This document shows, piece by piece, positions 7,287 through 58,650 of a stretch of DNA of 64,000 nt (position 1 is the stretch's first letter; each line of letters starts with the position of its first letter). The DNA lies in NCBI GenBank assembly GCA_902794835.1, contig CADBIO010000001.1:23174-87173 (forward strand), in the 5' to 3' direction. The notes beneath the pieces were generated by a model. It had not been told where the DNA came from and did not search any database. It worked only from the letters and a program-made list of their open reading frames with translations. The DNA is from an uncultured Erysipelotrichaceae bacterium. GTDB lineage: Bacteria > Bacillota_I > Bacilli_A > RFN20 > CAG-826. The position numbers and the translations under genes were made by a program.

Positions 7287-7310
7287 AACTATAAAACTAC
7301 TAATAAAATA

Positions 7311-8045
7311 CTATTTCCATTCAACGGGTTTTTCGTTTCCCTCTTTGATCCGTTTGATGTTGGACGCATGTCTCGCGATTAAAACGACCATTACCAAAGT
7401 GCTAATTAAAGCTTGCTGCCAACCATAGAAAACGCCTCCGCCAAAACCAAAATTGAACATTGCGTAATCCATAATTCGTTGACCGTTTTCTGTGTGTAAA
7501 ATGAGCAATTCTCTGACGCCAAACATAAGCCATTGGAAAATGGTGACGATCACGCTGGTGGTGATTGTGGCGATCGACATCACGTGTCTCTTTTTGAAAA
7601 GAGGGAAAAAGATTGCGGCGCAGGTGATGAAGTTCACCCAACCAAGTCCGCCGGTAGATGCCATAAAACAAGAAACGGCTTTTCCTCCTTTGAATTTGAG
7701 CCAAGGGGAGAAACAATGTCCAAAGGCAGCGAAGAATAAACCCAAATAGTTATAGAAAACGCCGTCGTCCCAAAGCTGTTCGTGAATGCCGGTGAATCTT
7801 AAGATCGCCCAAGGGACCCAAAAAGCAATGATGGTTTTCGCCATGTCAAGAACGATGACGGTGATGCCAATCTTCTTGCCGAAAGCGCGGCCGGTGTTGG
7901 TTCCGCCTGGATTGTGCGAGCCATAATTCCTTGGGTCGTCATGAAAGAAAAGTTTCCCGATGATGACACCCGTCGGGATGCTCCCCATTAAGAAACCAAA
8001 AGCAACGATGGCTAAGGAAATGCCTATGTTTAAACCCAAATCCAT
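7311..8045 (-). CDS. plsY: glycerol-3-phosphate acyltransferase PlsY
   Basis: Polytopic membrane protein with PlsY motifs GSHNPGGTN (cf. GSGNxGATN) and FKGGKAV. Sits upstream of parE as B. subtilis yneS does. Confidence 0.8.
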   Translation of the reverse strand: MDLGLNIGISLAIVAFGFLMGSIPTGVIIGKLFFHDDPRNYGSHNPGGTNTGRAFGKKIGITVIVLDMAKTIIAFWVPWAILRFTGIHEQLWDDGVFYNYLGLFFAAFGHCFSPWLKFKGGKAVSCFMASTGGLGWVNFITCAAIFFPLFKKRHVMSIATITTSVIVTIFQWLMFGVRELLILHTENGQRIMDYAMFNFGFGGGVFYGWQQALISTLVMVVLIARHASNIKRIKEGNEKPVEWK

Positions 8046-8152: not shown

Positions 8153-10111
8153 ATGACCGACATCGAAAAAGCAGAGAAGAATTACACCGCTAGAGACATC
8201 GAAGTTTTAAGCGAATTAGAGGGCGTCAGAAAGCGTCCTGGCATGTATATTGGGAGCACCAATTTAAGTGGCCTTCATCACTTGGTTTGGGAAATCATCG
8301 ACAATGCGGTTGATGAGGCTGTCAATGGCTACGGCAACAAAATCACGGTCACCATTTTGCGTGATGGCTCTCTTCAAGTCGAAGACGAAGGACGTGGCAT
8401 CCCGGTCGACATTCACCCAAAGGCCAAAATCCCTGCGGTTCAATTGATTTATACCACCCTTCACTCCGGCGGCAAATTCAATAGCAAAAATTATCAAGTC
8501 TCTGGCGGGTTACACGGCGTCGGAGCGACGGTCACTAATGCTCTTTCCGAACTTGTGGAAGTCACGATCTATCGTGATAACAAAATTTATTTCATCTCTT
8601 TCCATAACGGCGGTCAGCTTTTATCGCCGCTGAAAGTCATTGGGACGACCAATAAGCACGGAACCACGGTCCATTTCCGCCCAGACCCAACCATTTTCCC
8701 GAGCGTTAAATTCTCTTGGGATACCATTTATAACCGCCTGGAAGAAAAAAGCTACCTTTTGACTGGCGTCCATTTCATCCTGAAAGACCAAAAGACCGGA
8801 AACAGCCATGATTTCTACACCGAACACGGCTTGCGGGAATATGTTCAATCCCTGACACAAAACAAAACCCCTTTAGGGGATGTCATTGATTTTGTCGACA
8901 AAACCAATCCGATCAACGTCGAAGTGGCTATGCAGTGGTGCCTTAAGGATTACAACGAAAACATTCTTTCTTACGCCAACGATGTCAAAACTGGCGATGG
9001 CGGTACCCATGAAATCGGCTTTAAAACATCCCTGACTAAAACCCTAAACGATTGGGCCCAGCAAAATGAACTCATTAAACCTAACCAAACCATTGATGGA
9101 TCCGATATTCGTGAAGGTCTAACAGCTGTTATTTCAGTCAAAGTCCCAGAAGAAAAGCTCGAATATGAGGGCCAAACCAAAGGGAAACTCGGCACCCCAG
9201 AGGCGACTTCAGTCGTTTCCAATGCCCTCCAGAATTTCTTTATCTATTATTTAAATGAGCACAAGGAATTCGCCATCGACCTGATTAAGAAGTGCCAGGC
9301 CTCAAAAGAGGCGAGAGAAGCGGCGAGAAAAGCCAAAGAAGCTGCTCGCGGAGCGAAAAAGAAAGTTGTCGATTATGTGATTTCCGATAAACTGGCCAGC
9401 GCCCAATCCAAAGATTATAAGAACAACGAATTGTTCATTGTTGAAGGCGATTCCGCTGGCGGCTCTGCCAAAACGGGCCGCGATCGTCTCCACCAAGCCA
9501 TCCTCCCGCTCCGTGGAAAACCATTGAATACCGATAGCGTTTCCATGGAAAAAATCGTTAGCAACGCAGAATTTGCGACCCTCATTCAAACCATTGGCGC
9601 TGGTGTGGGCGCAGATTTCGATATTACCGAATCGCATTATGGCAAAATCATTATCATGACTGATGCCGATACCGATGGCGCCCATATTCAGACACTGCTA
9701 TTGACGTTCTTCTATAATTTCATGAAACCGTTGATTGATGCAGGGATGATTTATATCGCCCAGCCGCCACTTTATCGTGTCTACAAAAAGAGCGACCCAT
9801 CCAAACATATCTATTGTTGGGATGATAAAGAATTAGAGGCCGCCAAAATCAAAATCGGCGCAGGATATGGCATCAACCGTTACAAAGGGCTTGGCGAAAT
9901 GAACGCCAACCAATTGGCAGAAACCACGATGGACAAAAAGAAACGCGTCTTGATGCAAGTCAAGATCGATGACCCTTTGGTGGTGGAAAAACGCATCGGT
10001 ATTTTGATGGGCAAAGATTCGCAATCACGTTGGAATTGGATCCAAGAGAATGTCACCTTTAACGAAGAAGACAGCTTCTTATCGGAAATTGAGAAAGAAA
10101 CAGGCAAATAA
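8153..10111 (+). CDS. parE: DNA topoisomerase IV subunit B (GyrB-family ATPase)
   Basis: GHKL ATPase and TOPRIM domains. Adjacent to a ParC-type A subunit and downstream of plsY, the B. subtilis yneS-parE-parC arrangement. Confidence 0.75.
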   Translation: MTDIEKAEKNYTARDIEVLSELEGVRKRPGMYIGSTNLSGLHHLVWEIIDNAVDEAVNGYGNKITVTILRDGSLQVEDEGRGIPVDIHPKAKIPAVQLIYTTLHSGGKFNSKNYQVSGGLHGVGATVTNALSELVEVTIYRDNKIYFISFHNGGQLLSPLKVIGTTNKHGTTVHFRPDPTIFPSVKFSWDTIYNRLEEKSYLLTGVHFILKDQKTGNSHDFYTEHGLREYVQSLTQNKTPLGDVIDFVDKTNPINVEVAMQWCLKDYNENILSYANDVKTGDGGTHEIGFKTSLTKTLNDWAQQNELIKPNQTIDGSDIREGLTAVISVKVPEEKLEYEGQTKGKLGTPEATSVVSNALQNFFIYYLNEHKEFAIDLIKKCQASKEAREAARKAKEAARGAKKKVVDYVISDKLASAQSKDYKNNELFIVEGDSAGGSAKTGRDRLHQAILPLRGKPLNTDSVSMEKIVSNAEFATLIQTIGAGVGADFDITESHYGKIIIMTDADTDGAHIQTLLLTFFYNFMKPLIDAGMIYIAQPPLYRVYKKSDPSKHIYCWDDKELEAAKIKIGAGYGINRYKGLGEMNANQLAETTMDKKKRVLMQVKIDDPLVVEKRIGILMGKDSQSRWNWIQENVTFNEEDSFLSEIEKETGK

Positions 10112-10113
10112 TT

Positions 10114-12717
10114 ATGGCGAAGAGAGTGAAAGAAGAACCGATCATCAAGGAAAACATCATCAGCGATACTCTTGATGAATTAATGGGCGCAAAATACGCC
10201 ATTTATGCAAAAGACGTCATCCAAGACCGTGCCATCCCTGACGCCAGAGATGGTCTCAAACCCGTTCAACGCCGCATCATCTATGATATGGCCAAAACGG
10301 GAAACACCATCGATAAACCGACCAAAAAATGCGCTCACATCGTTGGTGACGTTATGGGCAAATATCACCCACACGGCGACTCCTCGATTTACGAAGCTTT
10401 GGTCCATATGTCCCAGACATGGGCCTACCGTTATCCTTTGATCGATTTCCAAGGGAACAACGGCTCTATCGATGGAGATGGCGCAGCCGCCTATCGTTAT
10501 ACAGAGGCAAGACTCAGCGCCTTGTCTAACGAACTTGTCGCCGATTTGGAACGTGATGCCGTCGATATGGAGCTCACTTTCGACGACACTGAACTTGAAC
10601 CGACTGTTTTGCCATGCCGTTTTCCGAATCTTTTGGCGAATGGCACCGAAGGAATCGCCGTTGGCATCGCCACTAGCATTCCGCCACATAATCTTCGTGA
10701 ACTCGTTCAAGCGATTAATTACCGCATCAAACATCCGAATTGTGACCTTGAAGCCTTGATGAGATATGTTCCTGGCCCGGACTTCCCGACCGGCGGCGTC
10801 ATCTTTGACGGCCAAGGATTGAAGGACATTTACAGCACCGGCCGCGGCAGAGTCGTCGTTTCTTCGAAATATGAATTCATCAACGATGCCAAACAAAAGC
10901 AAATTATCATCACGGAGATTCCTTATCGCACCAACAAATCGGAACTCGTCAAATCCATCGACCAAATCCGCCACGACAAAACGATTCCTGGCATCGAAGA
11001 AGTGCGCGATGAGACCGACAAAACAGGCTTACGCATCGCCATCGATTTAAAAGATGAAGCCAAACCAGAGGCGATCATCGCCTATTTGCTTAACAAAACC
11101 GAACTCAAAGTCTCCTATAGCGCCCATATGGTGGCTATCGTGGATAATCGTCCGAAGACGATGAATCTCATCGATTATTGCGATTGTTATATCGCCCATC
11201 AGTTGGACGTCATCTCGCGGCGTTCCCGCTTCAATTTGGCGAAGGATCAAGCGAGATTGAACATCGTTTCTGGGTTAATCAAAGCCATTTCCATTTTGGA
11301 TGAGGTCGTCGACACCATTCGCCATTCGGAAAACAAAGCTGACTCTAAATTCAACATCGAGAGCAAATTCGGCTTCAATGAGCCACAAGCAGAAGCCATC
11401 GTCACAATGCCTCTTTATAAACTTTCCCATACCGATGTAGAGGTTTTGGAAAATGAGATGAAGAGCCTTGAAGAGGACATCCGTGAGCTTAATGGTTTGC
11501 TTTCCGATCAGGAAAAACGCGAGGATTTGATCATCAACGATCTCAATCGCATCGCCAAAATCTATGGCGATAAGAGAAAAACGGAAATTCGTCCCGCCGA
11601 AGAAGAAGCGGTCTCTATCAACAAACGGGACCTCATCGCCAAAGAAGATGTTATGGTGGTTGCCACAAGGGATGGCTATATCAAACGTTCCAGCTTGAAG
11701 AGTTGGAAAGGATCTGGTGGCCATAATGGGGCCCGTCCTGGCGTCAAAGCGGGGGATGCTTTCGTTTTCGAGGCCCAATGCACGACGACGGATTATCTGA
11801 TTTTATTCACCGTCAAAGGCAATTATGTCTATATCCCAATCAACGAAATCAAAGAGGCAAAATGGAACGACGAAGGCTTCCATGTCTCTTCTTTGGTTAA
11901 TGTCACCCCAGACGATAAATTCATCTCTGGTTTTGCGGTCCGTAAATTCCGCAGCGATTTGAATGTCGTCATGCTTACGAAAAACGGGCAAATCAAGCGT
12001 ATCAGGCTCGATTCTTTGGAAGTCGTTAGAAGATCAAAAGCCATCGGCGCCATTCGCTTGAGCAAAGGCGATGAGCTGATTTCTGTGATCTATACCTCCG
12101 GAAATTCCAACATCTTCGTCGCTTCTAAGGAAGGCAAAGCGATCTTCTATAACGAAAATGAGATCTTGCTTTCTAATCCAAGAACCTCCGGCCTCAAGGC
12201 CGGTTCTTTCCACGGCAAGGAGTTGGCGGGGCTGTTGGGTTTTGCCGAAAACGAGAAACTCGGCAAAATCTTGATGGTTACCGATCGTGGGTGTACAAGA
12301 ATCTTCGACATGAACAAAATCCCGCTGTCGCATCGCTTGGATAAAGTTTTTAACTTATATGACATGTTCAAAAAAGAGCCACACGTTCTGATTTATCTAG
12401 ACAAAGTCGGTGACAAGAACGCTCCATATAGTCTCGATGCCATCTTGCAAGATTCTACCCGCACCGACATTGTTTTCGACGATTTCTTCTTAACGCCGAT
12501 GGAAAAATATGTGAAACGCCCAGACTCTTTCCCAGCCAAAGCCAGGATCGCTCGAATCTCGATTGAGGAGTCGCCGTTGCTTGACGAGACGATTCCCTCA
12601 TTTGAGCCACCCATCAAAGAAGAGCCAAAACCTGAGCCAACCGAGGATAAGATCATTGAATCCAGCGGAAACTTCGAACAGATTTCCTTGTTTGACGATT
12701 TAAACGATGATGAATAA
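10114..12717 (+). CDS. parC: DNA topoisomerase IV subunit A
   Basis: Active-site region [20 protein letters not shown] has ParC-type VQRR rather than GyrA VHRR. 867 aa with an acidic C-terminal tail. Confidence 0.75.
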
Positions 12718-13234
12718 AAAGGCCGTTCCCTTTGCCATAGCCAAATCGGCGTATGACATCCCATTGTCCTTCTTGGAGGAAAACAAGATCAAAGTCGTCC
12801 TCTTCGATTTGGACAACACTTTGGCCAGTTACAAAGAAAAAGCCCCGTCCAAAAGAACGTTTCAGTTGATAGATTCTCTCAAAAAAGCAGGAATCTTCGT
12901 GGCAATTGCCTCTAATAACACCAACAACCGTGTCAAGGAATTTGCCAAAGATTTAGGCATCCCGGCCTATTGCAATCTTAAAAAGCCATTCTCGGGACCA
13001 TTGAAAAAACTCCTTCAGAAAGAGCATTTCAATCCCGCGGAAACCGCCTTGATCGGCGATCAAATCATGACGGATACCTTTGCTGGGAATGGGGCAGGAA
13101 TCCGCGTCATCCTCACCCACCCTTTGACGAAAATCGACCCGATTTGGACTAAAATCAACCGTTTTCTCGCTAAAGGGAAGACAAAGAAACTCTACCAAGA
13201 GCCGTACCGTTCGATGTGGAAGGAGATTTTATGA
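12707..13234 (+). CDS. yqeG: HAD-IIIA phosphatase YqeG family
   Basis: DLDNTL motif I. First gene of the conserved yqeG-yqeH-yhbY-nadD-yqeK-rsfS cluster. Confidence 0.75.
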   Translation: MMNKKAVPFAIAKSAYDIPLSFLEENKIKVVLFDLDNTLASYKEKAPSKRTFQLIDSLKKAGIFVAIASNNTNNRVKEFAKDLGIPAYCNLKKPFSGPLKKLLQKEHFNPAETALIGDQIMTDTFAGNGAGIRVILTHPLTKIDPIWTKINRFLAKGKTKKLYQEPYRSMWKEIL

Positions 13235-14382
13235 GCACAATCGAAAGTTTGCGTCGTTGTTATCACTGCGGCGCCGTCCTTCAAACCGAGGATCCTTCGA
13301 AAGGAGGATACATTGATGTTTCCGTCGTCCGTGAACATACGGAAAAAGAGGTCTTGCTTTGTGACGCTTGCTACCAAAAGCAACGTTATAATCGCTATCC
13401 AGCCGGAGCGAAGGCCTCCAAAGATTTTTTGACGATGTTAAAAGACGCGAGGGCCTCCGATGCGATGATGGTCAACGTTGTTGACTTAACTTCTTTCGAA
13501 TGCTCTTTTGACCCTGCGGTCAGCGAATTGATCAATGGGCTTAAAATGATTGTCATCGGCAATAAACGCGATTTGATGCCTTCTTACAGAGATGAGGATT
13601 TGAAACAATATATCGTTTATGTGTTTCAAGAATATGGAATAGAAATAAAGCCAGAAGATGTGTTTTTGACTTCGTTGCTTTCCTCTTCCGACATCACCCC
13701 GATTGCCGAAGAAATCCAACGCCGCCGTCAAGGCCATGATGTTTATATTATTGGAGCTGCGGGAGCGGGAAAATCCTTGTTTCTCCAGGCTTTTTTGAAC
13801 ACCTATAGGAATCCTTCCAATCATGCCGTGGGAGTGAGCCAATATTATGGAACGAACCTCAATGTTCTTAAAATTCCATTGGACAGTTCGAGCTATATCT
13901 TCGACACGCCTCGGAGCGAGCTTTCAAATTCCTTCGCCCGTTATAGGGAAGACGTCGCCCTTCAGAAAGTCTTGTTCACCGACCAACCATTCTCAAACAA
14001 AAAAGGTTCTCTTTCCAAAGGGGGATCCCTATTTATCTCAACCTTGGCGAGAATCGATTATCTTCTGGGGCAAGGGGGATTCTCCTTTAGTTCCCATTTT
14101 CCGGAAAAAGTGCAACTTAAGACAGTTTCCATGAAAAAGGATATGGACGCCTTGTTTATGAAATATCACGAGAAAAAAGCCTTAAAGCCGCACGCCTCCT
14201 TTATTCATTCGATCATGGATTATGACGTTTTCGATATCAACGTCACCGAAATTGGGCGTCGAGAGATTTCCATCGCCGGGTTAGGCTGGCTGAGTTTCAA
14301 AAATGAAGGCGAGACCAAAATTAGAATCTACGTCCCGAAGGGAATCGGCGTTTATTCAGGCAAAGCGAAAGGACATCGTTGA
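13231..14382 (+). CDS. yqeH: ribosome biogenesis GTPase YqeH (circularly permuted GTPase, N-terminal zinc ribbon)
   Basis: N-terminal CxxC...CxxC, NKRD (G4) and GAAGAGKS (G1) in permuted order. AAGGAG sits 5 nt upstream of ATG 13231. The G3 motif reads DTPR rather than DTPG. Confidence 0.75.
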   Translation: MSTIESLRRCYHCGAVLQTEDPSKGGYIDVSVVREHTEKEVLLCDACYQKQRYNRYPAGAKASKDFLTMLKDARASDAMMVNVVDLTSFECSFDPAVSELINGLKMIVIGNKRDLMPSYRDEDLKQYIVYVFQEYGIEIKPEDVFLTSLLSSSDITPIAEEIQRRRQGHDVYIIGAAGAGKSLFLQAFLNTYRNPSNHAVGVSQYYGTNLNVLKIPLDSSSYIFDTPRSELSNSFARYREDVALQKVLFTDQPFSNKKGSLSKGGSLFISTLARIDYLLGQGGFSFSSHFPEKVQLKTVSMKKDMDALFMKYHEKKALKPHASFIHSIMDYDVFDINVTEIGRREISIAGLGWLSFKNEGETKIRIYVPKGIGVYSGKAKGHR

Positions 14383-14384
14383 TT

Positions 14385-14672
14385 ATGTTGACACCAAAAA
14401 ACAGGGCCGTTTTAAAAAGCATGGCCAATCACCTCAAACCTCAAGTGACCTTAGGAAAAGGGGAAGTGGACGAGAATATCCTTTCGGCCATCGCCAATTC
14501 CTTAGAAGCGCATGAATTGATCAAGGTCAAAGTCCTTCAAAATTCCAATGAGGACATTCATGCCATATCCGAGCAAATCGTACTCGGAACCGATTCTTTC
14601 TTAGTTGACATCATTGGAAGAATCATCATCCTTTACCGACCGAGCAAAAAGCATCCGAGGAATTTAATCTGA
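14385..14672 (+). CDS. yhbY: RNA-binding ribosome assembly protein YhbY (CRM domain)
   Basis: MLTPKNRAVLKSMANHL... aligns with B. subtilis YqeI/YhbY. The ORF track's extra MI- comes from an upstream TTG. Confidence 0.75.
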   Translation: MLTPKNRAVLKSMANHLKPQVTLGKGEVDENILSAIANSLEAHELIKVKVLQNSNEDIHAISEQIVLGTDSFLVDIIGRIIILYRPSKKHPRNLI

Positions 14673-14674
14673 AT

Positions 14675-15787
14675 ATGGAACGTTTAGTCATTTTCGGAGG
14701 CACGTTCGACCCAATTCATCGAGGGCATTTAAGAATCGCCCGCGAGGCTGCTTTAAGGCTAAATGCCGATGTCGTTTTCGTGCCCGCCAAAATGCCACGT
14801 TGGAAAAGCCCCGAGGCGACCACGGAAGATCGTCTCAAAATGTTGAAATTAGCTTTACAAGAAGACGGTTCGGCTTCTTTTTCCATCGATGAATGTGAAC
14901 TTAAACGACCCGACGAGACGACCTATTCCATCGATACGGTCAGATATTTCGTGAAAAAATTCCCAAATCGCGAATTATTTTTGCTTATCGGTGCGGACGA
15001 GGTCAACAAATTTGATCATTGGCATCAAGCTGATGCGATTGCCTCTTTGGCTCGGATTCTTTATGTGAATCGTCCCGACATAGAAATCGATAAAAATATA
15101 CTGAAAAAGTATCGGATGATCTCTTTGGACTTCGATGGCTCAGGGTCTGTTTCTTCCAGCGCCATTCGGGAACTTAAATCCATTGATATTCCTTCCAAAG
15201 TCCTTAATTATATTGAAACGCACGACCTTTATTTCATGAAACGATTGCATTCTTATTTAGGGAGCAAGCGTCTGCGTCACTCTCTTTCTGTCGCCCATAC
15301 CGCGTACGCGATCGCGCGCAAAAATAAGGTTAATGATCCTGAACGAGCTTACATCGCCGGGATTTTGCATGATATCGGCAAAGAGTTGGGGGAAGAGGAA
15401 TCTAATTCCATCATGAAAGAGAATTTCCCTGAATTCCTTTCTTATCCTAAATTCTGTCATCACCAATTCACCGGATCTTATCTTGCGGAACACGAATTCG
15501 GCGTGAAAGACCTCTCGATTTTGGATGCCATCCGTTATCATTGCACCGGGAAGGCCCATATGTCCGTTTTGGCAAAAATCATTTTTTCTGCCGACAAGAT
15601 TGAGCCGACCAGAGGATATGATTCCGCAAATCTAATCAAAGACTGCAACGAGAATTATTATGCTGGGTTCCTGGCGGTCATTCGCGCGAATGCCGATTTC
15701 CTCGATGGCAAAACTGGCGGGGTAGATTCCAATCCATTAAGCCAAGAATGCTATCAGCAATATCTGAATAAAGGGGAGAAGAAATGA
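14675..15787 (+). CDS. nadD: fused nicotinate-nucleotide adenylyltransferase NadD / HD-domain Ap4A hydrolase YqeK
   Basis: N-terminal 190 aa carry the NadD motif (GGTFDPIHRGH). C-terminal 180 aa carry the YqeK HD motif (HSLSVAHTA...GILHDIGKE). One uninterrupted 370-aa frame. Confidence 0.8.
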   Translation: MERLVIFGGTFDPIHRGHLRIAREAALRLNADVVFVPAKMPRWKSPEATTEDRLKMLKLALQEDGSASFSIDECELKRPDETTYSIDTVRYFVKKFPNRELFLLIGADEVNKFDHWHQADAIASLARILYVNRPDIEIDKNILKKYRMISLDFDGSGSVSSSAIRELKSIDIPSKVLNYIETHDLYFMKRLHSYLGSKRLRHSLSVAHTAYAIARKNKVNDPERAYIAGILHDIGKELGEEESNSIMKENFPEFLSYPKFCHHQFTGSYLAEHEFGVKDLSILDAIRYHCTGKAHMSVLAKIIFSADKIEPTRGYDSANLIKDCNENYYAGFLAVIRANADFLDGKTGGVDSNPLSQECYQQYLNKGEKK

Positions 15788-16098
15788 AATACCCTAAGCT
15801 CATTTCTCAAATTCAGACTATCTTAGACGAAAAGAAAGTAGAAGATGTCGTAGTCCTCGATGTTAAAGATCGGACTCCTTTTTCCGATTATTACCTGATC
15901 GGAACGGCAATTAACTCTCGTTCCTTAGAAGCGGTTGCCCAATCTTTGGAAGATTTCCTGTTTAGGGAAGAAGGGATAAGCATCAAGAAAGAAGGGACAC
16001 CGGAAAGCGGCTGGATTGTCGTTGATGCTGGCGGCGTGGTGATTCACGTCCTCACTGAAGAAAAAAGAAAACTGTTTCAATTAGAAACCATCAGATAA
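15784..16098 (+). CDS. rsfS: ribosome silencing factor RsfS (Iojap)
   Basis: 104 aa with the conserved VVVLDV...SDYYLIGTA motif. Confidence 0.85.
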   Translation: MKYPKLISQIQTILDEKKVEDVVVLDVKDRTPFSDYYLIGTAINSRSLEAVAQSLEDFLFREEGISIKKEGTPESGWIVVDAGGVVIHVLTEEKRKLFQLETIR

Positions 16099-16123
16099 AA
16101 ATAAATTTATTTACGGTCAATTT

Positions 16124-16151
16124 ATTGGCCGTTTTCTTTTATTTCCTTTCG
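16124..16151 (+). terminator. rho-independent terminator after rsfS
   Basis: Hairpin CGGTCAA-TTTA-TTGGCCG followed by TTTTCTTTT. Confidence 0.65.
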
Positions 16152-16390
16152 TTTAAAGGCGGAATTGGGAAGTAGGGGGCTAAAACCTTTCTTTATTTTA
16201 AAAGAAGAATCATTTGATAAAACGTCCTTTAAAATGACTTAAATATTAATCATTTAATATGGAGAATACATTCTAACCCAAGAAACCTTAAACGGTTCAG
16301 GGTAGAGGTTTTTTCTGAAAGGCTCAACTATTGAAAGTATTTAAGTTGTTTTTATTCTTTACAAAAGGTGTATCGCTTTAAATTATAAAG

Positions 16391-16418
16391 ACTTCGCATA
16401 ATGTCCGTTATGTTAATA
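16391..16418 (+). other. dif: candidate dif site (XerCD chromosome-dimer resolution site)
   Basis: ACTTCGCATAA-TGTCCG-TTATGTTAATA shows the Xer core palindrome ATAA-N6-TTAT. The left arm resembles B. subtilis ACTTCCTAGAA and E. coli GGTGCGCATAA. The right arm matches E. coli TTATGTTAAAT at 9 of 11 positions. It lies in AT-rich non-coding DNA where + and - strand gene blocks converge, 1.7 kb from xerD. Confidence 0.45.
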
Positions 16419-16884
16419 AAAAGAAGTAAAAAACGCTAAAAAGGCTCTATATATAAAATTGATTATAATTATTGTTCACTCAGTATTAGAGTTTTTCACA
16501 AAGTTATCAACATACTTTGTAAACTACTAATTATTAACTATTTAAAAGGTTAATTGGAAATTTGATCAATGATTATGTGTTTGTATTTTTTGTTACTAAT
16601 AAAGATGCTTTGTTTTTGCCTAAAACCCTTAATTTCTAAAATTAATTGACTAAAATATATTTAAACTTATTATCTTTTAATCTATTTAAAAAACCGCCCT
16701 GATTGACCTTTTATTCAGTCAAACAATAGGAAATATAGGGTTTTGAATCGCTAACGAATTTAAAATTAATAATCAGTCATTCTATAGACTATTCTCTATG
16801 ATATTATTTCGCTTGTTTATAAACTTTGAAGCGCTATACTTCTTTTCCCTAAGAAAATAGTTTTCTTTAGTTATAAGTAAAAAG

Positions 16885-16912
16885 TTACCGAAACTAATCG
16901 GTAACTTTCGTG
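16885..16912 (-). terminator. rho-independent (bidirectional) terminator downstream of deoB
   Basis: Perfect hairpin GTTACCGA-AACTAA-TCGGTAAC with T-runs on both strands. Confidence 0.7.
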
Positions 16913-16930
16913 ATTTTGAATCGCTGAGAA

Positions 16931-18124
16931 TTATTTAAGGATTTCTTCTATCGGCGTGCCAATCAAATCGGATGGATTTTCTAGCCCGAAGTTCTTTAAG
17001 ATGGTCGCTCCCATGTCAGAGAAACTGGATCTTTCTTCAAGATACCGGCCATCGGTGATGCTTGGAGACCAAATTAGCAACGGAACCTTTTCTCTGGTAT
17101 GGTCGGTCCCGCGGAATGTCGGATCGTTTCCGTGGTCTGCGGTAATCATTAAGAGGTCATCCGGTCTCATTGCTTTCATCATTTCGCCGACACGAACGTC
17201 AAGAAGTTCCAATTGTCTGGCGTATCCTGGAGCGTTTCTACGATGGCCGAATTCAGAATCGAATTGAACGAGGTTGACAAAGCAAAGCCCTGTCCAATCG
17301 TCGTTTTTGACTTGTTCAATCGTCTTGTCCATACCATCCATATCGCTTACGGTATGAACGGTTTTGGTAACGCCAGCCATATTGAAGATATCTGATATCT
17401 TTCCGACGCAACTGGTCATAAAACCATGATCTTTCAGCACATCCATATGGGTTTTTCTTGGGGGTTGCAAAGCGTAATCGTGACGATTCGGCGTGCGTTT
17501 GAAATTGTCTTTGTTGGTTCCCACGAATGGTCTAGCAATAATGCGGCCAACTCTCCATTCTGGTCTTAAGCAAAGCTCGCGGGCGATTTCGCAACAACGA
17601 TACAATTCTTCGAGCCCTGTCACTTCTTCATGGGCGGCGATTTGCAAGACGGAGTCGGCTGAAGTATAGACAATCAAAGAATTCTCTTTCATTTGCTGCT
17701 CGCCGAGGACTTTGAGAATCTCGGTTCCGCTGGAAGAATAATTTCCGATGATCTTATGCCCGGTTCTTTTCTCGAGTTCGTCGATTAATTCCTGCGGGAA
17801 CCCCGTTTCGGTGAAAGTCTGGAACGGTTGGGTTGTCAAAATGCCCATCATCTCCCAATGCCCGGTCATCGTATCTTTGCCGTTGGATTCTTCGCGGCAA
17901 CGGGTGACGAAACTATTTCGGTGTGATTTTACCGATTTAACACCGGGAATGTCAGCGAGTTCGCCAACACCCATACTTTCCATATAAGGAACATGAATTC
18001 CGCCGACAGATTGAGCGGCGTGAACCCAGGTGTTCGTTCCTTCGTCTCCCCATTTTGCCGCATCAGGTTCCTCGCCAATCCCGGCGCTGTCTGCGACAAT
18101 CAAGAAGATACGCTTATATCTCAT
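16931..18124 (-). CDS. deoB: phosphopentomutase
   Basis: N-terminus MRYKRIFLIVADSAGIGEEPDA and AP-superfamily metal ligands. 397 aa. Confidence 0.9.
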   Translation of the reverse strand: MRYKRIFLIVADSAGIGEEPDAAKWGDEGTNTWVHAAQSVGGIHVPYMESMGVGELADIPGVKSVKSHRNSFVTRCREESNGKDTMTGHWEMMGILTTQPFQTFTETGFPQELIDELEKRTGHKIIGNYSSSGTEILKVLGEQQMKENSLIVYTSADSVLQIAAHEEVTGLEELYRCCEIARELCLRPEWRVGRIIARPFVGTNKDNFKRTPNRHDYALQPPRKTHMDVLKDHGFMTSCVGKISDIFNMAGVTKTVHTVSDMDGMDKTIEQVKNDDWTGLCFVNLVQFDSEFGHRRNAPGYARQLELLDVRVGEMMKAMRPDDLLMITADHGNDPTFRGTDHTREKVPLLIWSPSITDGRYLEERSSFSDMGATILKNFGLENPSDLIGTPIEEILK

Positions 18125-18163
18125 AGTAAGGCCTCCTAGATATAATTATCACGAGATTATAGT

Positions 18164-19045
18164 TCATTTTCGCGACGCGTACAAATCATATGCGGACATG
18201 ATGCGCTTCGTTGAAACTTCGGTATAGATCTGCGTGGTCGCGATTTTACTATGCCCGAGCATCTCCTGGACCGTTCTTAAAGAAGCACTGTTTTCCAACA
18301 GATGGGTCGCAAAACAATGCCTTAAGGTATGGGGGGATACGAAAGAATTGATACCGGCTTTTTCGGCGTATTTTTTCACTTGGACGAAGAAATAATTACG
18401 GGAAATCTTCTTTCCATCGCGATTTAAAAACAGATAGACGGTACCTTTTCCCGGATTCCTTGTTCTCGGACCTTGGACATATTTTCGAAGATAATCTAAC
18501 GCAAACGGAGACACTGGGACGGTCCTCTGCTTGTTGCCTTTCCCATAAACGGTGATTAGCCCGTCTTGGAAATTCACATTCCCGAATTTTAATTCGATCA
18601 ATTCAGAAACGCGTAGCCCCGTCGCATACATCACTTCCAGCATCGCACGATCCCGCATTCCATTGTCTTTAGAGATATCTGGGGCCTCGAATAAGGCATC
18701 GACTTCCTCTAAACTCAAGACGATGGGAAGCTTCTTGTCAGGCTTTGGCTTGTCAAACGAAGGCACATCCTCTTGTAAAAGGTTTTCGCTTACCAAAAAC
18801 TCAAAAAAGTTTTTCACAAAACTATAACGGCGAAGGATCGTGGCCGTGGCGCGGGCCAAATCATCCTGTTTCTTAATGAAAGAAGGCAACATATTAACGT
18901 TGAGATCAGCGGTATCTTTCACCTCTGGGAACGTTTTTATAAAGATTTTGAAATCTTCCGTGTAATTGCTGATGGTCGCCTGACTGGCCATGTGTTCGAC
19001 TTCTAAATACTGCACGAAAGAGGCGAATGCTTCATCGATCTCCAT
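18164..19045 (-). CDS. xerD: tyrosine site-specific recombinase XerD (RipX-like)
   Basis: Catalytic R..HxxR..Y residues near the C-terminus (RHCFATHLL...GHSKIATTQIYTEV). Adjacent to deoB as B. subtilis ripX is to drm. Confidence 0.8.
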   Translation of the reverse strand: MEIDEAFASFVQYLEVEHMASQATISNYTEDFKIFIKTFPEVKDTADLNVNMLPSFIKKQDDLARATATILRRYSFVKNFFEFLVSENLLQEDVPSFDKPKPDKKLPIVLSLEEVDALFEAPDISKDNGMRDRAMLEVMYATGLRVSELIELKFGNVNFQDGLITVYGKGNKQRTVPVSPFALDYLRKYVQGPRTRNPGKGTVYLFLNRDGKKISRNYFFVQVKKYAEKAGINSFVSPHTLRHCFATHLLENSASLRTVQEMLGHSKIATTQIYTEVSTKRIMSAYDLYASRK

Positions 19046-42813: not shown

Positions 42814-45402
42814 TTATTTTTTGATTTGCTCGATTTTATCGAGTAAATTTTTTAATAAATCGTTGTTGTTTTTCAATTTTTCGCGTTCCAGTTCAACTTT
42901 TTCTTTCGGGGCCTTGGCAACAAAACCAGGGTTAGAAAGGATTTTCGTCGAACGGGCGATTTCTGATTCGAGCACTTCCTTTTGCTTCTCCAATCGGCCC
43001 AACAACACGGTTGGATCGACATCTTCTTCGACGACCATCTCACAGCCTGGGTAGATGAATGGGTTGCCGCCTAAAATCTCCTTTTTGACGGCATAAGAAT
43101 TAGCGAAGGCAAATCTCGAAAGGTATTCGCCTGAGCCTGGAAATGGCTCTTTTGGCGAGACGACAAGACGAACTTTCGCATTTGGTGCGATGTTGTTGGA
43201 GGATTTGTAATTCCGGATGTCCCGAATCATGGATTGGAGGATTTGAACTTGGTCAGAGGCTTTCTTATTCAAGAATTGCTTCTCATAGGTTGGATAAGGC
43301 TCGCACATGATCGAATCTCGATGCCCTGGCAAGGAAAGATACATCTCCTCGGTCACGAATGGAGTATAAGGATAAATCATCAAGATGATGTCTTTCATGA
43401 CCTTATAAAGAACGTCTTTGGTGACTTCCGCCTCTTCTCCTCCGTGACTTAAGGAAATCTTCGAGAATTCGAGATAATTCGAGCAGAAATCGTCATAAAC
43501 GAAATCATAAAGAACACTGGAAGCCTGACCGAATTCGTAAGAATCCATCTTGCTTCCGACCTTTTTGATCGTTTTTTCCAAACGGTTCATGATATCGGCA
43601 TCGAGGGTGCCGAGTTTCTTTTTCTCGATCGCCCGAGGCGTGTAATTTTCACCGAGCACTCCTTCGACATAACGGCAAGCGTTCCAGATTTTGTTCAAAT
43701 AAGCCTCCGAGGAAGCGACTTTCTCCTCGATGTAACGCATATCCATGCCTGGGGTGCTGTTGGTGGTGATGAAATAACGTAAGGCATCCACCCCATAATG
43801 ATCGATGACATCCATCGGATCGATGCCGTTTCCTAGGGATTTTGACATTTTCCTTCCCAAAGAGTCTCTCACCAAGCCATGGATGACCACTTGTTTGAAA
43901 GGGACCTCGTCGGTGAAATGGAGGGATTGGAAAATCATTCGCGACACCCAGAAGAAAATGATGTCATATCCGGTGACCAGGCAAGAGGTTGGGAAGTAAC
44001 GCTGGAAATCAGGGTTTTCTGTATTTGGCCAACCCATGGTTGCAAAAGGCCAAAGGGCGCTAGAAAACCAGGTATCCAAGACATCTTCGTCTTGCACATA
44101 AAGATTCATGTCTGGCGCTTCTTCGCTAACAAGCACTTCCCCTGTTTCTTTATGATAATAAGCAGGGATTCGGTGACCCCACCAAAGTTGACGGGAAATG
44201 CACCAATCTTCGATATTGCTCATCCAACGGAGGAGAACTTTCTCAAATCGTTTTGGCACGAATTCCACCTTGCCAGAAGTCTTTTGCCTTTCCAAAACTT
44301 TATCGGCCAAAGGCTTCATCTTCACGAACCACTGTTTGGAAAGCATCGGCTCAACGACGGCATCGCTGCGCTCGGAGTGGCCGACGGAGTGAACGATTTT
44401 CTCGATTTTCACCAAATGTCCCTCTTCTTTGATCTTCTCGACCAAGGCTTTTCGACATTCATAACGGTCCATCCCTTGATAGATGCCGCATTTCTCATTC
44501 ATATGGGCTGTCTCATCGAGGACTTTGATGAGAGGGAAATGATATTTTTTGGCTAAATTGAAGTCGTTGGGGTCATGGGCTGGCGTGCATTTCATCGCCC
44601 CCGTGCCGAAAGAGACGTCAACGTAGGAATCCGCCATCAAAGGAAGTTCCTCCCCATTGGCAGGGTTGATGACTTTTTTGCCGATAAGGTCTTGATAACG
44701 AGGATCTTTCGGATTGACGAAAACGGCAGTGTCTCCAAACATCGTCTCTGGGCGAGTGGTCGCAACGACAATGCTTCGATCCGTCCCCACCACATCGTAT
44801 CGGAAATAGAAGAATTCACCTTCGTCATCCTTATGGACGATTTCAATATTCGACAAAGCGGTTTTTAGTTCCGGGTCCCAATTGGTAATTCTCTCGCCTT
44901 GATAGATCAACCCTTCGTTATAGAGAGTCACGAAAACGTGTCTAACGGCTTTGGAAAGCCCCTCGTCAAGGGTGAATCTTTCCCGAGAATAGTCGATAGA
45001 AAGGCCCATTTTCTTCCATTGTTCATGAATGGTGTGGGCGTATTCTTCTTTCCATTCCCAGGCTTTTTTCAAAAATCCTTCGCGCCCTAAATCATAACGG
45101 GTGACTCCTTCTTCGCGGAGTTTTGCCTCGACTTTGGCTTGGGTGGCAATGCCAGCGTGGTCCATGCCAGGCAGCCATAGGACGTCAAAGCCTTTCATCC
45201 GTTTATAACGGGTGATGATGTCTTCCAATGTCGTATCCATCGCATGGCCAAGATGGAGCTTTCCCGTGACATTTGGCGGCGGGATGACCAAAGAGAATGG
45301 CGGCTTTGATCGATCTAAGCCCGCTTGAAAATAATTCCCTTTGACCCATTTGTCATATTTTCCGTCTTCAACTTGCTTTGGATCATAATGTTTCTCTAAC
45401 AT
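42814..45402 (-). CDS. valS: valine--tRNA ligase
   Basis: Class I HIGH (PNVTGKLHLGH) and KMSKS motifs plus a C-terminal coiled coil. 862 aa. AGGAGG SD. Confidence 0.9.
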   Translation of the reverse strand: MLEKHYDPKQVEDGKYDKWVKGNYFQAGLDRSKPPFSLVIPPPNVTGKLHLGHAMDTTLEDIITRYKRMKGFDVLWLPGMDHAGIATQAKVEAKLREEGVTRYDLGREGFLKKAWEWKEEYAHTIHEQWKKMGLSIDYSRERFTLDEGLSKAVRHVFVTLYNEGLIYQGERITNWDPELKTALSNIEIVHKDDEGEFFYFRYDVVGTDRSIVVATTRPETMFGDTAVFVNPKDPRYQDLIGKKVINPANGEELPLMADSYVDVSFGTGAMKCTPAHDPNDFNLAKKYHFPLIKVLDETAHMNEKCGIYQGMDRYECRKALVEKIKEEGHLVKIEKIVHSVGHSERSDAVVEPMLSKQWFVKMKPLADKVLERQKTSGKVEFVPKRFEKVLLRWMSNIEDWCISRQLWWGHRIPAYYHKETGEVLVSEEAPDMNLYVQDEDVLDTWFSSALWPFATMGWPNTENPDFQRYFPTSCLVTGYDIIFFWVSRMIFQSLHFTDEVPFKQVVIHGLVRDSLGRKMSKSLGNGIDPMDVIDHYGVDALRYFITTNSTPGMDMRYIEEKVASSEAYLNKIWNACRYVEGVLGENYTPRAIEKKKLGTLDADIMNRLEKTIKKVGSKMDSYEFGQASSVLYDFVYDDFCSNYLEFSKISLSHGGEEAEVTKDVLYKVMKDIILMIYPYTPFVTEEMYLSLPGHRDSIMCEPYPTYEKQFLNKKASDQVQILQSMIRDIRNYKSSNNIAPNAKVRLVVSPKEPFPGSGEYLSRFAFANSYAVKKEILGGNPFIYPGCEMVVEEDVDPTVLLGRLEKQKEVLESEIARSTKILSNPGFVAKAPKEKVELEREKLKNNNDLLKNLLDKIEQIKK

Positions 45403-45409
45403 CGGGGTT

Positions 45410-45665
45410 TCCTCCTTTGAAAATAAAATGCGCCGTATCCCAAGATAGGGACGCGGCGCGCGGTACCACCCTAATTCCGCAACATAATCGATATTTGCGG
45501 CACTTTAACACTTTAACGCAGTGAACGGAATTCCTTCGGTTCTCCAAAGCGACTCACCGTCTTCTGATGCCAAGTTGCAGCAACCCTTGGCTCTCTAAGA
45601 TCAAAAGATACGGATCCCTCTTCTTCAACGAACGACAAAATTATAAAGGGAATGTCCCCTCTTTT
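45410..45665 (-). promoter_or_regulatory. T-box riboswitch leader of valS (probable GUC valine specifier)
   Basis: Minus strand carries the canonical T-box sequence AATTAGGGTGGTACCGCG at 45449-45466. Downstream of it is the terminator hairpin GCGCCGCGTCCC...GGGATACGGCGC followed by ATTTTATTTT. Upstream is a stem I AGAGAG box with GTC in the putative specifier loop. Confidence 0.8.
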
Positions 45666-55208: not shown

Positions 55209-56546
55209 TTATTTTTTATCGTTATCGTCGAATGGGTCGCCACATTCTGGGCAGAATTTCGGTGGGTTTTTCGGATCTTTTGGCTCCCAGCCACATTTAT
55301 CGCATCTATAAAGCGGCTCACCAGCAGGTTTTTTGGCACCGCATTCGGCGCAGAATTTGCCTTTGTTGACCGTACCGCAGGTCGGGCATTTCCAACCCGC
55401 GCTTTCTTCTGGTTTCTTCGTACCACATTCTGGGCAGAATTTTCCCGTGACTTCGGCACCGCATTTCGGGCATTTCCAAGAATCGGCGGCTGGTTTTGGT
55501 TGGGAAGCTGCTTGTTGTTGTTTTTGCTCTTGCTGCTGGGCTTCCATCTGGTAGAAATTGTTCGCGTTCATGCCACCCGCTTGCGCAGCCATATTTAAGC
55601 CATAGAAACCCATAGCCGCCCCATTGGCGTTGGAGGCAGCGCCTTTCATGGCTTCGCCTTGGGCCTCGACTAAGGAAGCACCAGCCATGCCAGGGTTTCT
55701 ATAAACGGCTTGACGTTGGAGATTTTTGATAAGGTCTTCGTCTTCTTTTGGAAGAGTGACGGAGGAAAGGGCGATAGAAACCACTTCTAAGCCGCGTGTT
55801 TCCAACCATTTCTCGGTAAGAACTTCATTCATCGCTTTTTCTAATTCGGTGATGTGGGCGACAATTTGATTGGGACGAATCTCTAAGGCAGATAATTTGC
55901 CAAAAGCAGGTTGCAACGCGGAGATAAATTCGCTCTTTAGGGTGTTGTCTAATTCGCTGCGGTTATAAGATTCCGAAACATTGCCACAGACATTCTGATA
56001 GAAAAGGATTGGGTTGCCAATACGATAGGAGAAGGTGCCGAAGCATCGGACGGAAACATCGATATCAAGCCCGATATTACTATCAACGACTCGGAATGGG
56101 ACCGGATTGGCGGTTCCGAATTTATTGTCGAGGATTTCTTTGATGTTGAAATAATAGACACGTTGATCTTTGCCACTGTCTCCGCCATAGCCAATACGAT
56201 TCCACATCGTCTTGAACATGCCAGCCACGCCTTGGAAAAGGTTGCCGCAGAAAACAGAAGGCTCAGAGCCTTTGTCATAAGTGTATTGTCCAGGTTCAGA
56301 GCAGATATCCATGATCTTGCCTTGTTCGACGATGATCATGCACTGGCCATCAGCGACAGCGATACCAGAACCGTTGGAGATAATATTGTCGTTGCCTCTA
56401 TGATTCGAACCGAATCTTCCGGTGACTCTTTTTTCACCTTTTACCATCAAAACGGTCTTGTCGATTGATTCGCAATAGAAAAATTCTTTCCACTGATCTG
56501 CGAGGGTGCCTCTGACGGAGCCGCTCACTGCTTTGATTAAACCCAT
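55209..56546 (-). CDS. SPFH/band-7-like protein (COG4260, YdjI-like) with Gln-rich linker and triple C-terminal zinc ribbon
   Basis: N-terminal region resembles the B. subtilis YdjI family (PspA-associated). The C-terminus has three tandem CP.CG....KFC.ECG zinc ribbons after a QQQEQKQQQ linker. Confidence 0.65.
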   Translation of the reverse strand: MGLIKAVSGSVRGTLADQWKEFFYCESIDKTVLMVKGEKRVTGRFGSNHRGNDNIISNGSGIAVADGQCMIIVEQGKIMDICSEPGQYTYDKGSEPSVFCGNLFQGVAGMFKTMWNRIGYGGDSGKDQRVYYFNIKEILDNKFGTANPVPFRVVDSNIGLDIDVSVRCFGTFSYRIGNPILFYQNVCGNVSESYNRSELDNTLKSEFISALQPAFGKLSALEIRPNQIVAHITELEKAMNEVLTEKWLETRGLEVVSIALSSVTLPKEDEDLIKNLQRQAVYRNPGMAGASLVEAQGEAMKGAASNANGAAMGFYGLNMAAQAGGMNANNFYQMEAQQQEQKQQQAASQPKPAADSWKCPKCGAEVTGKFCPECGTKKPEESAGWKCPTCGTVNKGKFCAECGAKKPAGEPLYRCDKCGWEPKDPKNPPKFCPECGDPFDDNDKK

Positions 56547-56654
56547 AATAGATTCTCCTTGTGTGCTTTCGAAAGTTTACGAATTTTATTGTAAACAATA
56601 CGGATTCTTTTTTCATCTTAATTTGATGACTCTCCTGATTAGGAGATAGGAAAA

Positions 56655-56873
56655 ATGTCCATTTCAGAGCGTTTTTACGGTTTTCGCCTATTCAATTTTG
56701 TGTCAAAGTATGTATGTGATCATGGCGCCCTAGACCAATTTCGATACATCTTTGCTTCTGGTAGAATCACGCTATCTAATTCCAAGTCAAAGCGATTTTT
56801 ATTGAGTTTTATCATTCTATGTGATTGCATAGCAGCAAAAATTCATCCGTGGTTGTCGATGACTACCACTTAG
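56655..56873 (+). CDS. hypothetical small protein (72 aa), convergent with and overlapping the DUF1016 gene stop
   Basis: Good SD (AGGAGATAGG) 4 nt upstream of ATG. No homology recognised. Confidence 0.25.
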   Translation: MSISERFYGFRLFNFVSKYVCDHGALDQFRYIFASGRITLSNSKSKRFLLSFIILCDCIAAKIHPWLSMTTT

Positions 56874-57880
56874 CGGGGATTCTTTTTGGTTTCCTCGAAC
56901 AATGTTTGATATTCAATTAGTTTTTCTTTTAATGCATTGGTGTCGATTAGTTGGGTTGAATATGTTGCAACCGCAGTTGGTGAAATAGATCTAGAAGAAG
57001 CTAGTTCCACTACTGAATCGTTTTTAGAGGCACATAAAATAATCCCCACACTTGGATTTTCATTGGGTTTCTTTTCGTATTTATCTAAGGCGGCAAGATA
57101 AAAATCCATTTTTGAAACAAATTCTGGTTGGAATTTATCCACTTTTAGTTCAAAAGCTACTAAACATGAATATGTTCTGTTGTAGAATAGCAAATCAATA
57201 TAAAAGTCTTCTCCACCAACATTGATTCGATGTTCTTGCTCAATAAAAGTAAAATCCTTCCCAATTTCTAAAATAAAGTTTTTTAAATTACTTATGATTG
57301 CATCTTTTAAGTCTTTCTCTTTGTAGTTGTTGGGCAAATCAAGGAATTCCAGCGAATAGGCATCTAATAATTTAGTATTTGGTCCATCTTCTTCTCCCAC
57401 CACTGGCTCTAAACTTTCCAAGGCATTTCCGTTAGATAATAAATATCTTTCATAATAATGACTTTGGATCTGCCTATTGAGTTCCCTTTTGGAATAATTA
57501 TTTTTAATGCAAAGACGAATATAAAATTCTTTTTCCTCGATTGTTTTTGTTCCTTGCAAAATTAGCAAATTATTAGTCCAACTCAATTGTGTCACCAGTG
57601 GTGAGACAATTATATTGTCTCTATATGTCTCATAAAATTGAATCATTCTATATAGACCGGCTCTGTTGAATCCTTTTAAGGATGGATATTGAGTTTTTAT
57701 AGTTATGACTAGATTATCAATTGTCTTTGATCCCCAACCGCCTGATGCAACTTTTTTTGACAAATATTTTCCTACTTCGTAATACATTGTCACTAATTCT
57801 TCATTAATTTTTCGATAAGCGTTTTTTCGATGAAGTTGAATGATATTTATAATTTCTTTAAATTCAGATTCTTTTTCCAT
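56870..57880 (-). CDS. PDDEXK-family nuclease, DUF1016 (YhcG-like)
   Basis: N-terminal DUF1016 helical domain (YYEVGKYL...WGSKTID.L...FPSLKGFNRAGLYRM.QFYETY) and C-terminal restriction-endonuclease-like core (DLLFYN...LVAFELK). AT-rich. Confidence 0.7.
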   Translation of the reverse strand: MEKESEFKEIINIIQLHRKNAYRKINEELVTMYYEVGKYLSKKVASGGWGSKTIDNLVITIKTQYPSLKGFNRAGLYRMIQFYETYRDNIIVSPLVTQLSWTNNLLILQGTKTIEEKEFYIRLCIKNNYSKRELNRQIQSHYYERYLLSNGNALESLEPVVGEEDGPNTKLLDAYSLEFLDLPNNYKEKDLKDAIISNLKNFILEIGKDFTFIEQEHRINVGGEDFYIDLLFYNRTYSCLVAFELKVDKFQPEFVSKMDFYLAALDKYEKKPNENPSVGIILCASKNDSVVELASSRSISPTAVATYSTQLIDTNALKEKLIEYQTLFEETKKNPR

Positions 57881-57885
57881 ATTAA

Positions 57886-58056
57886 CTATTCCTCCACTGT
57901 TTCAAATAAATCGACACCGGGAATAAGGGCGCATCCGCCCCAATTACCATGAATTTGTCCGATGCCATCGATGTGCTCAACAATGCCGACTTTGCCACTG
58001 TAATCTGGTTCCCCATCCATTCGGATGATTTTAATTTTGTCTCCAACTTTAACCAT
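57886..58056 (-). CDS. DUF4314-family small protein (56 aa)
   Basis: Hand-translated MVKVGDKIKIIRMDGEPDYSGKVGIVEHIDGIGQIHGNWGGCALIPGVDLFETVEE. AGGAGA SD 8 nt upstream. Its stop overlaps the SD of the DUF1016 gene. Below the ORF track cutoff. Confidence 0.55.
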   Translation of the reverse strand: MVKVGDKIKIIRMDGEPDYSGKVGIVEHIDGIGQIHGNWGGCALIPGVDLFETVEE

Positions 58057-58650
58057 CAATAAAATCTCCTTTCGTCAGTTAGACAGCACGTGTCTTCAAA
58101 AGGAGATAAATAAAAACCATCACCATAATGAAAACACCTTTTGTAGTTATCGACTCAGTCCCGTAACTACTGGTGTTACATCATCCTCGTGATGGCCACA
58201 TGCTCAATTGAACAACAATTGTAGGGAGCGCGATGGTCCTCTTGAACGCAAGGGCGTCTGCCAACGCGACCCCTTCCGCTTGCGTCTCATACCATTACTG
58301 GGCAATACTTTCCCTATTACCACACCCTAACACGTAGTGTGATAGTTTATCTATCCATTGGCCTCAGTTTGCCTGCGTATGGTTGACTTTGCTATTGCTA
58401 GTTCATAGCGCCCGTGGTCTAGATAGATGAACAAGATTATTATAGCAAAAGCTACGCTTCGTAGGTAGAGCCACGAGAATTTAGTCGCTTTTGTCGACGG
58501 AATCAATGCGGCTGGAATTATCATGATCCGAATTGTTTCGCTTTAATGGTCGCTCTTGTTTCTTTGTTCTCGTCATATCAAAGCAAATTGAAAGCACTCA
58601 ATCCAAGAAATCATCATATCAGTTAGAAACGCTCGAACTAGCGAATAAAA

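Follow-up and report, generated by a model that had tools for sequence, protein, structure and literature searches.

A predicted chromosomal dif site at the meeting point of two converging gene blocks in an uncultured lineage of Bacilli

The 64-kb stretch of DNA analysed here (hereafter, the window) carries at positions 16099-16930 a convergent intergenic spacer of 832 bp and 26.4% GC, placed between rsfS, the last gene of a left block on the + strand (15784-16098; TIGR00090, 83.2 bits), and deoB, the last gene of a right block on the - strand, which encodes phosphopentomutase (16931-18124; NCBIfam NF003766, 529.5 bits). The left block ends with the genes yqeG-yqeH-yhbY-nadD/yqeK-rsfS, preceded by parE and parC, encoding topoisomerase IV (8153-12717, + strand), whose best matches, TIGR01058 and TIGR01061, are both just under the cutoffs. 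In this operon, nadD and yqeK are fused into one ORF of 370 aa (14675-15787), having the PRK07152 model as its best match. On the other side, the right block starts from the spacer with deoB, the gene of a XerD-like tyrosine recombinase (18164-19045, - strand) and dinB, then dxs, xseBA and nusB. Regarding the recombinase, it reaches 299.6 bits on TIGR02225 (cutoff 329.6) and 284.5 bits on PRK00283 (cutoff 279), as well as 273.7 bits on the XerC model and 127 bits on the XerS model NF003462 (cutoff 267). Elsewhere in the window, a T-box leader (45444-45637, 97.2 bits) was found upstream of valS (42814-45402, - strand), and a second AT-rich stretch of about 37% GC (56500-59000) looks like a small island beside a tRNA gene, holding a COG3943 RNA (58134-58232), tRNA-Arg(TCT) (58917-58993), a YhcG/DUF1016 nuclease-like gene and a DUF4314 gene.

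The spacer had been described in the first-pass annotation as long, AT-rich and free of ORFs, which was confirmed by its length and composition and by its longest ORF being of 26 aa. No Rfam family was found in it at the gathering score, the sub-threshold hits having E values of at least 0.016. The two terminators assigned to its ends are also present, although the first one required a correction of its position: the hairpin of the intrinsic terminator of the rsfS operon lies at 16113-16132, around 10 bp to the left of the initial placement at 16124-16151, with an 8-bp stem, a 4-nt loop and a T-run, the whole element extending over 16113-16142 (+ strand). The second is a bidirectional hairpin at the 3' side of deoB (16881-16908), formed by a perfect 11-bp stem between A and T runs.

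Classical dif sites have 28 bp, with two 11-bp arms in partial dyad symmetry around a 6-bp centre, and are found once per replicon. They lie in the replication terminus, opposite oriC, where compositional and orientation biases change sign, in genomes encoding both XerC and XerD. Inside the spacer, the 28 bp at 16391-16418 (+ strand) are predicted to form such a site, as judged by uniqueness in the window, the score on a matrix of published dif sites and conservation in 69 relatives. It comprises a left, XerC-type arm, ACTTCGCATAA (16391-16401), the 6-bp centre TGTCCG (16402-16407) and a right, XerD-type arm, TTATGTTAATA (16408-16418), all read on the + strand, and the ATAA-N6-TTAT dyad is present within the two partially symmetric 11-bp arms. 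The XerCD architecture first proposed for this 28-mer thus agrees with the letters of the sequence, and the same arm-centre-arm profile is reproduced in the 69 relatives. No second copy of the 28-mer with up to nine mismatches occurs in the 64-kb window, and no other dif candidate was found in the extensions of 10 kb on either side of it (84 kb in all).

For the comparison with known sites, a weight matrix was built from 17 published dif sites of Firmicutes and Acholeplasma (Kono 2011 Table S1, PMC3025954), a paper that gives the sequences of B. subtilis and E. coli as well. When all 28 positions are scored, the site ranks first in the window, with a marginal score, as its 13.6 bits equal the best of 40 simulated windows, which is due to the centre TGTCCG differing from the usual TATATA. 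The recombinases do not bind the centre, and arms-only scoring was adopted in place of the full matrix. With the arms alone, the 28-mer reaches 20.7 bits, compared to 9.2 bits for the runner-up in the window, a value attained in two of 300 simulated 64-kb windows and in one of 5000 simulated AT-rich spacers. In addition, the left arm is identical to that of the predicted dif of L. casei (11/11), and the right arm matches those of E. coli and B. anthracis at nine of 11 positions each. It could be argued that a dif-like sequence has arisen by chance in the AT-rich DNA between two unremarkable convergent operons, since ATAA and TTAT strings are common in a spacer of 26% GC and the match including the central 6 bp does no better than the best simulated window. 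Against this stand the rarity of the arms-only score among simulated spacers and, above all, the base-for-base conservation of the arms in 69 genomes, where the intergenic DNA around them cannot otherwise be aligned, leaving to chance a negligible probability.

These relatives were collected by a scan for deoB, taking one genome per species, which gave 80 loci from metagenome-assembled genomes (MAGs) of uncultured Bacilli, with 25-62% GC and a deoB 58-76% identical to that of the window; they are deposited as Bacilli bacterium MAGs, Ca. Onthovivens, Ca. Enteromonas and Coprobacillus sp. CAG:826. The pattern ACTTCGCATAA-N6-TTATGTTAAC occurs on the same strand in 69 of them, which is essentially every locus with enough downstream DNA, in the form ACTTCG[C/T]ATAA-N6-TTATGT[T/A]AAC. 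It is always located between the deoB-side block and the rsfS/nadD-side block, as one copy per 21-kb locus; in the 1.33-Mb contig JBMNLN010000001.1 (L058), it occupies approximately 1,053,947-1,053,974. Aligning the 69 sites, conservation is restricted to positions 1-12 and 17-26, with an information content of 1.6-2.0 bits at positions 1-6, 8-12 and 17-23, decreasing to 0.1-1.0 bits across 13-16 and reaching the background level beyond the site, except for an A-rich tail. This arm-centre-arm profile bears the signature of a Xer site. Besides the dif site and the box and repeat element adjoining it, no conserved DNA was found by BLASTN of the spacer against all loci of the relatives.

On the independent matrix of published sites, those of the relatives have a median of 29.4 bits, and the site of the window, with 20.7 bits, has the lowest score in the clade. 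This is due to its terminal ATA, in place of ACT or ACC, and to a G replacing A at the last position of the centre, whose clade consensus is T-N3-Y-A. The reading of the 28-mer as dif had been put forward from the window alone, and it now gains the recurrence of the same site, in the same orientation and at the same point of gene convergence, in 69 related genomes, with conservation ending at the edges of the arms. This comparative evidence is the decisive part of the case for a probable dif site.

The relatives also provide an explanation for the length of the spacer, which had been taken as part of a terminus signature. In most of them, two ABC-permease-like genes of around 320 and 258 aa come after deoB in the same direction, the second bearing a binding-protein-dependent transport permease domain, and often a third gene between deoB and dif, of around 190 aa, with a C-terminal PemK/MazF toxin domain. 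The latter has an N-terminal extension of around 60 aa and, in many relatives, directly adjoins dif (e.g., L063:9385-9972, L037:11305-11949 and L058:11325-11906). Where these genes are present, dif lies in a short gap, at 20-200 bp from rsfS/nadD. The lineage of the window and a few others (L012 and L042) do not carry the ABC-permease-like and PemK-domain genes, and a tblastn search of the spacer for pseudogene remnants of them returned only noise. As the relatives keep one to three genes where the window has none, the long spacer most plausibly reflects lineage-specific gene loss between deoB and dif, as part of a local deletion history, and is no property of a terminus; this argument of the first-pass annotation was therefore abandoned.

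Regarding gene orientation, genes were counted in the window plus 10 kb on each side (84 kb), taken from the ENA scaffold STEW19-1_SAMEA5383968 scaffold_116 (172,876 bp), whose sole difference from the window is a gap of 100 N in the scaffold, and in which the site falls at about 92.4 kb. In the 26 kb to the left of the site, 22 genes are on the + strand and 4 on the - strand, whereas in the 57 kb to the right 43 are on the - strand and 3 on the + strand, so that the orientation switches at the site (Fisher p = 1.5e-11 over the 84 kb). The strand-bias switch noticed at first at the spacer is thus real, even if not absolute. The left block, read toward the site, comprises rpsU, ybeY, cdd, era, recO, glyS, dnaG, sigA, efp, parEC and the yqeG operon, and the right block, read in the same manner, comprises tig, lon, ysxC, valS, radC, obg, ruvAB, secDF, recJ, relA, hisS and aspS, and nearer to the site tkt, xseA, dxs, dinB, xerD and deoB. 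Both blocks presumably keep the map order of B. subtilis and its direction relative to fork movement, and this gene order and direction fit two replichores meeting at the site and cannot be reconciled with an origin. As an established rule, dif is located at most some 1-3% away from the skew switch (Kono 2011, PMC3025954).

A replichore junction, that is, the terminus, is well supported at the site by gene orientation and synteny, and would lie opposite oriC. The earlier reading of the spacer as chromosome terminus is then sustained by the orientation switch, by synteny and by the rule relating dif to the skew switch, while GC skew, proposed at that time as its check, does not contribute. No inversion of GC skew is seen at 16.4 kb in the 64-kb window, the values on the left and right of it being -0.017 and -0.001 (genome 44% GC); AT skew changes sign in the window. 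Among the relatives, 48 of 60 loci show positive skew toward rsfS and negative skew toward deoB, strongly so below 40% GC. However, this flip was rejected as an independent proof of the terminus, being a coding-strand effect: all genes examined have a negative GC3 skew on their coding strand, and the flip results from the composition of the first and second codon positions together with the change of coding strand, not from replication mutational bias. In five loci with naturally inverted ABC genes, these differ from the co-oriented genes by only a small skew shift, in the expected direction. GC skew is evidence neither for nor against the terminus.

The genes parE-parC are transcribed toward dif, with the end of parC at 3.7 kb from it, and in nearly all relatives parC is located about 4-6 kb from dif, beside the yqeG operon and on the side opposite to xerD, which itself lies 1-6 kb from dif in nearly all relatives (1.4-5.8 kb where both were placed). 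The parE-parC genes, the yqeG-rsfS operon, dif, deoB and xerD form then a neighbourhood conserved in the clade (8153-19045 in the window), bringing the dimer-resolution site, one recombinase and the decatenase all within about 10 kb. In B. subtilis, parEC is located at about 1.934-1.939 Mb. The local order in that species is yneP-parEC-ynfC-alsT-xynC, within 12 kb, and its dif lies at 1,942,542 (Kono 2011, PMC3025954); owing to both positions, the linkage of parC to dif seems ancestral in Bacilli.

As first noted, xerD is the next-but-one gene from the spacer, at around 1.7 kb from the site, and its product is the presumed catalytic partner of the right arm. This nearness had been taken as a support for dif and for the terminus. 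It is indeed conserved in the clade, but it is not generally diagnostic, as xerD is usually proximal to the origin and it is xerC that is usually near dif (Kono 2011, PMC3025954), so the linkage of xerD to dif is atypical relative to that general trend. Neither a second Xer gene nor ftsK/spoIIIE was found in the window plus 10 kb on each side (84 kb).

Beyond the right arm, the window has two DnaA-box-like nonamers on the + strand, TTTTTCACA at 16492-16500, with two mismatches to the DnaA consensus TTATCCACA and starting at +101 from the start of dif, and TTATCAACA at 16504-16512, with one mismatch, at +113. In 47 of the 69 relatives, the corresponding strand has a box with one mismatch at most between +101 and +126, with TTATCCACA or TTTTCCACA as consensus (e.g., L024, L062 and L019) and perfect copies of the former in many of them; the mode is at +112-117, around 85 bp past the XerD-type arm, and the expectation is 0.006 per locus. 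In the whole window, the frequency of DnaA boxes is at chance (12 observed vs 12.3 expected).

Next to the boxes, two 11-bp units of a TACTAA array, AACTACTAATT and ATTAACTATTT, are located at 16522-16543 (+ strand), with their TACTAA parts at 16524-16540, where 0.06 would be expected per window. In the relatives, 63 of 69 have two to five units of TACTA[A/G/T] at exact 11-bp spacing, approximately at +120 to +170, the first copy lying between +119 and +163. Arrays of two to five (A/C)TACTAA units with the 11-bp period are also a clade-wide intergenic motif, occurring in either orientation (at 7297-7313 of the window and in loci L007-L084), upstream of yqeG, near dxs and after plsY among other places, often abutting start codons or just after stops, in a layout resembling the direct-repeat sites of response-regulator type. 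The idea that the repeats are an accessory sequence of dif is weakened, as the same arrays appear at many other intergenic sites. The box, in turn, is specific to dif, being found beside 46 of the 64 dif-adjacent arrays, compared to zero or one in every other class of array. The apparent 11-bp 'helical phasing' of the offsets may result when repeat units are gained or lost, or when boxes stand in tandem.

The presence of an AT-rich non-coding region of 832 bp with TTATCAACA and TTTTTCACA at 16492-16512, together with the perfect TTATCCACA that many relatives have at the corresponding position, could also suggest a replication origin. A bacterial oriC has a cluster of DnaA boxes and an AT-rich unwinding element between diverging genes, usually beside dnaA/dnaN. 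Here, one or two degenerate boxes only are seen, their frequency in the window is at chance, the genes converge on the site (22:4 and 43:3), neither dnaA nor dnaN is found in the 84 kb and a dif site is present; moreover, around 90% of the genes, including sigA, tig, ftsZ and the tRNA synthetases, would run head-on to replication. The locus was therefore set apart from the oriC class, and an origin at this position is very improbable.

A further alternative is a real Xer-type site other than the dif of the terminus, either the relic attachment site of a mobile element or plasmid or a site bound by XerD, e.g., for SMC unloading. The DnaA box and 11-bp repeats alongside resemble an origin/resolution module of a plasmid, a PemK/MazF-domain gene adjoins the site in relatives, the gene content between deoB and dif varies, and some contigs classed as viral carry a dif-like site followed by two to four DnaA boxes. 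Nevertheless, the flanks are housekeeping genes, syntenic across an order-level clade, with no rep gene and no integrase besides xerD; both arms are conserved, and not the XerD arm alone; and the orientation switch coincides exactly with the site. An element integrated by Xer recombination is further disfavoured by the lack of a second dif-like half or duplicate, such as Xer integration should leave around the variable genes, in the window, its extensions or any locus of the relatives. Such a site is unlikely here, though it retains more weight than an origin does. In metagenomes, several contigs (L139, L146, L186, L212, L112 and L126), none of them of the clade of the window, have dif-like sites grouped by twos or threes over a few kb, and this clustering on environmental contigs is as expected for Xer-integrated elements.

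Turning back to the reading as chromosomal dif, the site in this clade may comprise more than the bare 28-mer. From the position of the DnaA-box-like element, a single box or a tandem pair, beside the XerD arm, the initiator can be proposed to be coupled to the site of dimer resolution, a tentative idea that is rather doubtful at present. Among 125 dif-like sites sampled without bias from metagenomes, most lack a DnaA box; at least three other uncultured lineages carry boxes on that side of dif, each lineage at constant distances of its own (+43, +95/96 and +150/162). No paper describing a DnaA box beside dif was found in the literature, and we know of no description of such a coupling. Should DnaA bind these boxes, the locus replicated last would have a site for it; this site could then report the completion of replication, titrating DnaA only once the terminus is duplicated, or, alternatively, bound DnaA could modulate Xer recombination or the arrival of the translocase at dif.

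The explanation best fitting these observations, to which we give a probability of roughly 0.85, is that 16391-16418 is the chromosomal dif of an uncultured lineage of Bacilli with small genomes, located at the junction of its replichores, and that the long spacer around it is left from lost genes. The 28-mer is regarded, from sequence comparison, as a putatively functional dif of the canonical XerCD type and a new member of a well-known class. Following the known mechanism, two Xer tyrosine recombinases would bind the two 11-bp arms when sister chromosomes are dimerised after replication: the XerD-like protein encoded 1.7 kb away would occupy TTATGTTAATA, and a XerC/CodV-type partner encoded elsewhere would occupy ACTTCGCATAA. 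They would then synapse the two copies of dif and exchange strands across the 6-bp centre, restoring monomers. We infer in this way Xer binding and cleavage, the identity of the second recombinase and the control by a FtsK/SpoIIIE-type translocase.

The site would mark the replichore junction and the dimer-resolution site of widespread uncultured gut Bacilli, which can help to close and orient MAGs, to estimate growth rates from coverage (peak-to-trough) and to spot mobile elements that exploit Xer. Within the clade, xerD, topoisomerase IV and dif appear as a stable group of neighbours close to the terminus. What dif does is in itself textbook knowledge, and the conserved DnaA box alongside is the one point that may be new.

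Comparing with known systems, the closest is the dif of B. subtilis (ACTTCCTAGAATATATATTATGTAAACT), served by CodV and RipX, which shares the 11+6+11 layout, the ACTTC of the outer left arm and the ATAA/TTAT inner dyad, as well as the location in a convergent intergenic region at an orientation switch, with a RipX/XerD-like recombinase a few kb away. Presumably, parEC is also found a few kb from dif in that species, as here. Besides these similarities, 18 of the 28 positions match, the centre is TGTCCG instead of TATATA and the right arm ends in ATA. The right arm has the TTATGTWAA of the Firmicutes dif family, predicted by Kono et al. in 2011 and, reportedly, by Le Bourgeois et al. in 2007; the window differs from that family in having xerD at 1.7 kb from the site and a DnaA-box-like sequence around 85 bp past the XerD arm. 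Regarding E. coli dif (GGTGCGCATAATGTATATTATGTTAAAT, XerC/XerD and FtsK), 20 of the 28 positions are identical, including GCATAA in the left arm and nine of 11 positions of the XerD arm, and the function would be the same; the outer left arm of the window is, however, of the Firmicutes type.

In Bacillus, the fork trap relies on Ter sites of around 30 bp, with A and B half-sites bound by dimers of RTP, arranged in opposed groups around the terminus, and on an rtp gene. The TACTAA arrays only recall the ACTAA/TACTAAAT cores of these Ter sites; the units here are direct 11-bp repeats present at many intergenic sites in both orientations. The plasmid sites cer of ColE1 and psi of pSC101 have a Xer core with accessory sequences, and the core in this clade is likewise accompanied, at a fixed distance, by around 150 bp of conserved neighbouring sequence that looks protein-binding. 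The accessory sequences of the plasmid sites, of around 180 bp, flank the XerC arm and bind PepA with ArgR or ArcA, and they are plasmid-borne, whereas the site of the window is chromosomal, in a housekeeping region, with the neighbouring element on the XerD-arm side, as judged by arm homology, and with repeats that are a genome-wide motif. In addition, the centre has 6 bp, compared to 8 bp in cer (the psi core has 6 bp), and no ArgR, PepA or ArcA sites were identified. A plasmid site of the cer/psi type was thus rejected, considering the chromosomal context and the side on which the element lies.

Lastly, the modules difSL/XerS of streptococci and difH/XerH resemble this locus in the clade-wide linkage of a recombinase gene to its site. 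In the difSL/XerS module, a 31-bp difSL lies immediately upstream of xerS, whereas here the site is a classical one of 28 bp with one to four genes between it and the recombinase gene, and the recombinase is XerD/XerC-like, its 127 bits on NF003462 being far from the cutoff of 267, which sets the locus apart from that module and beside the canonical XerCD sites.
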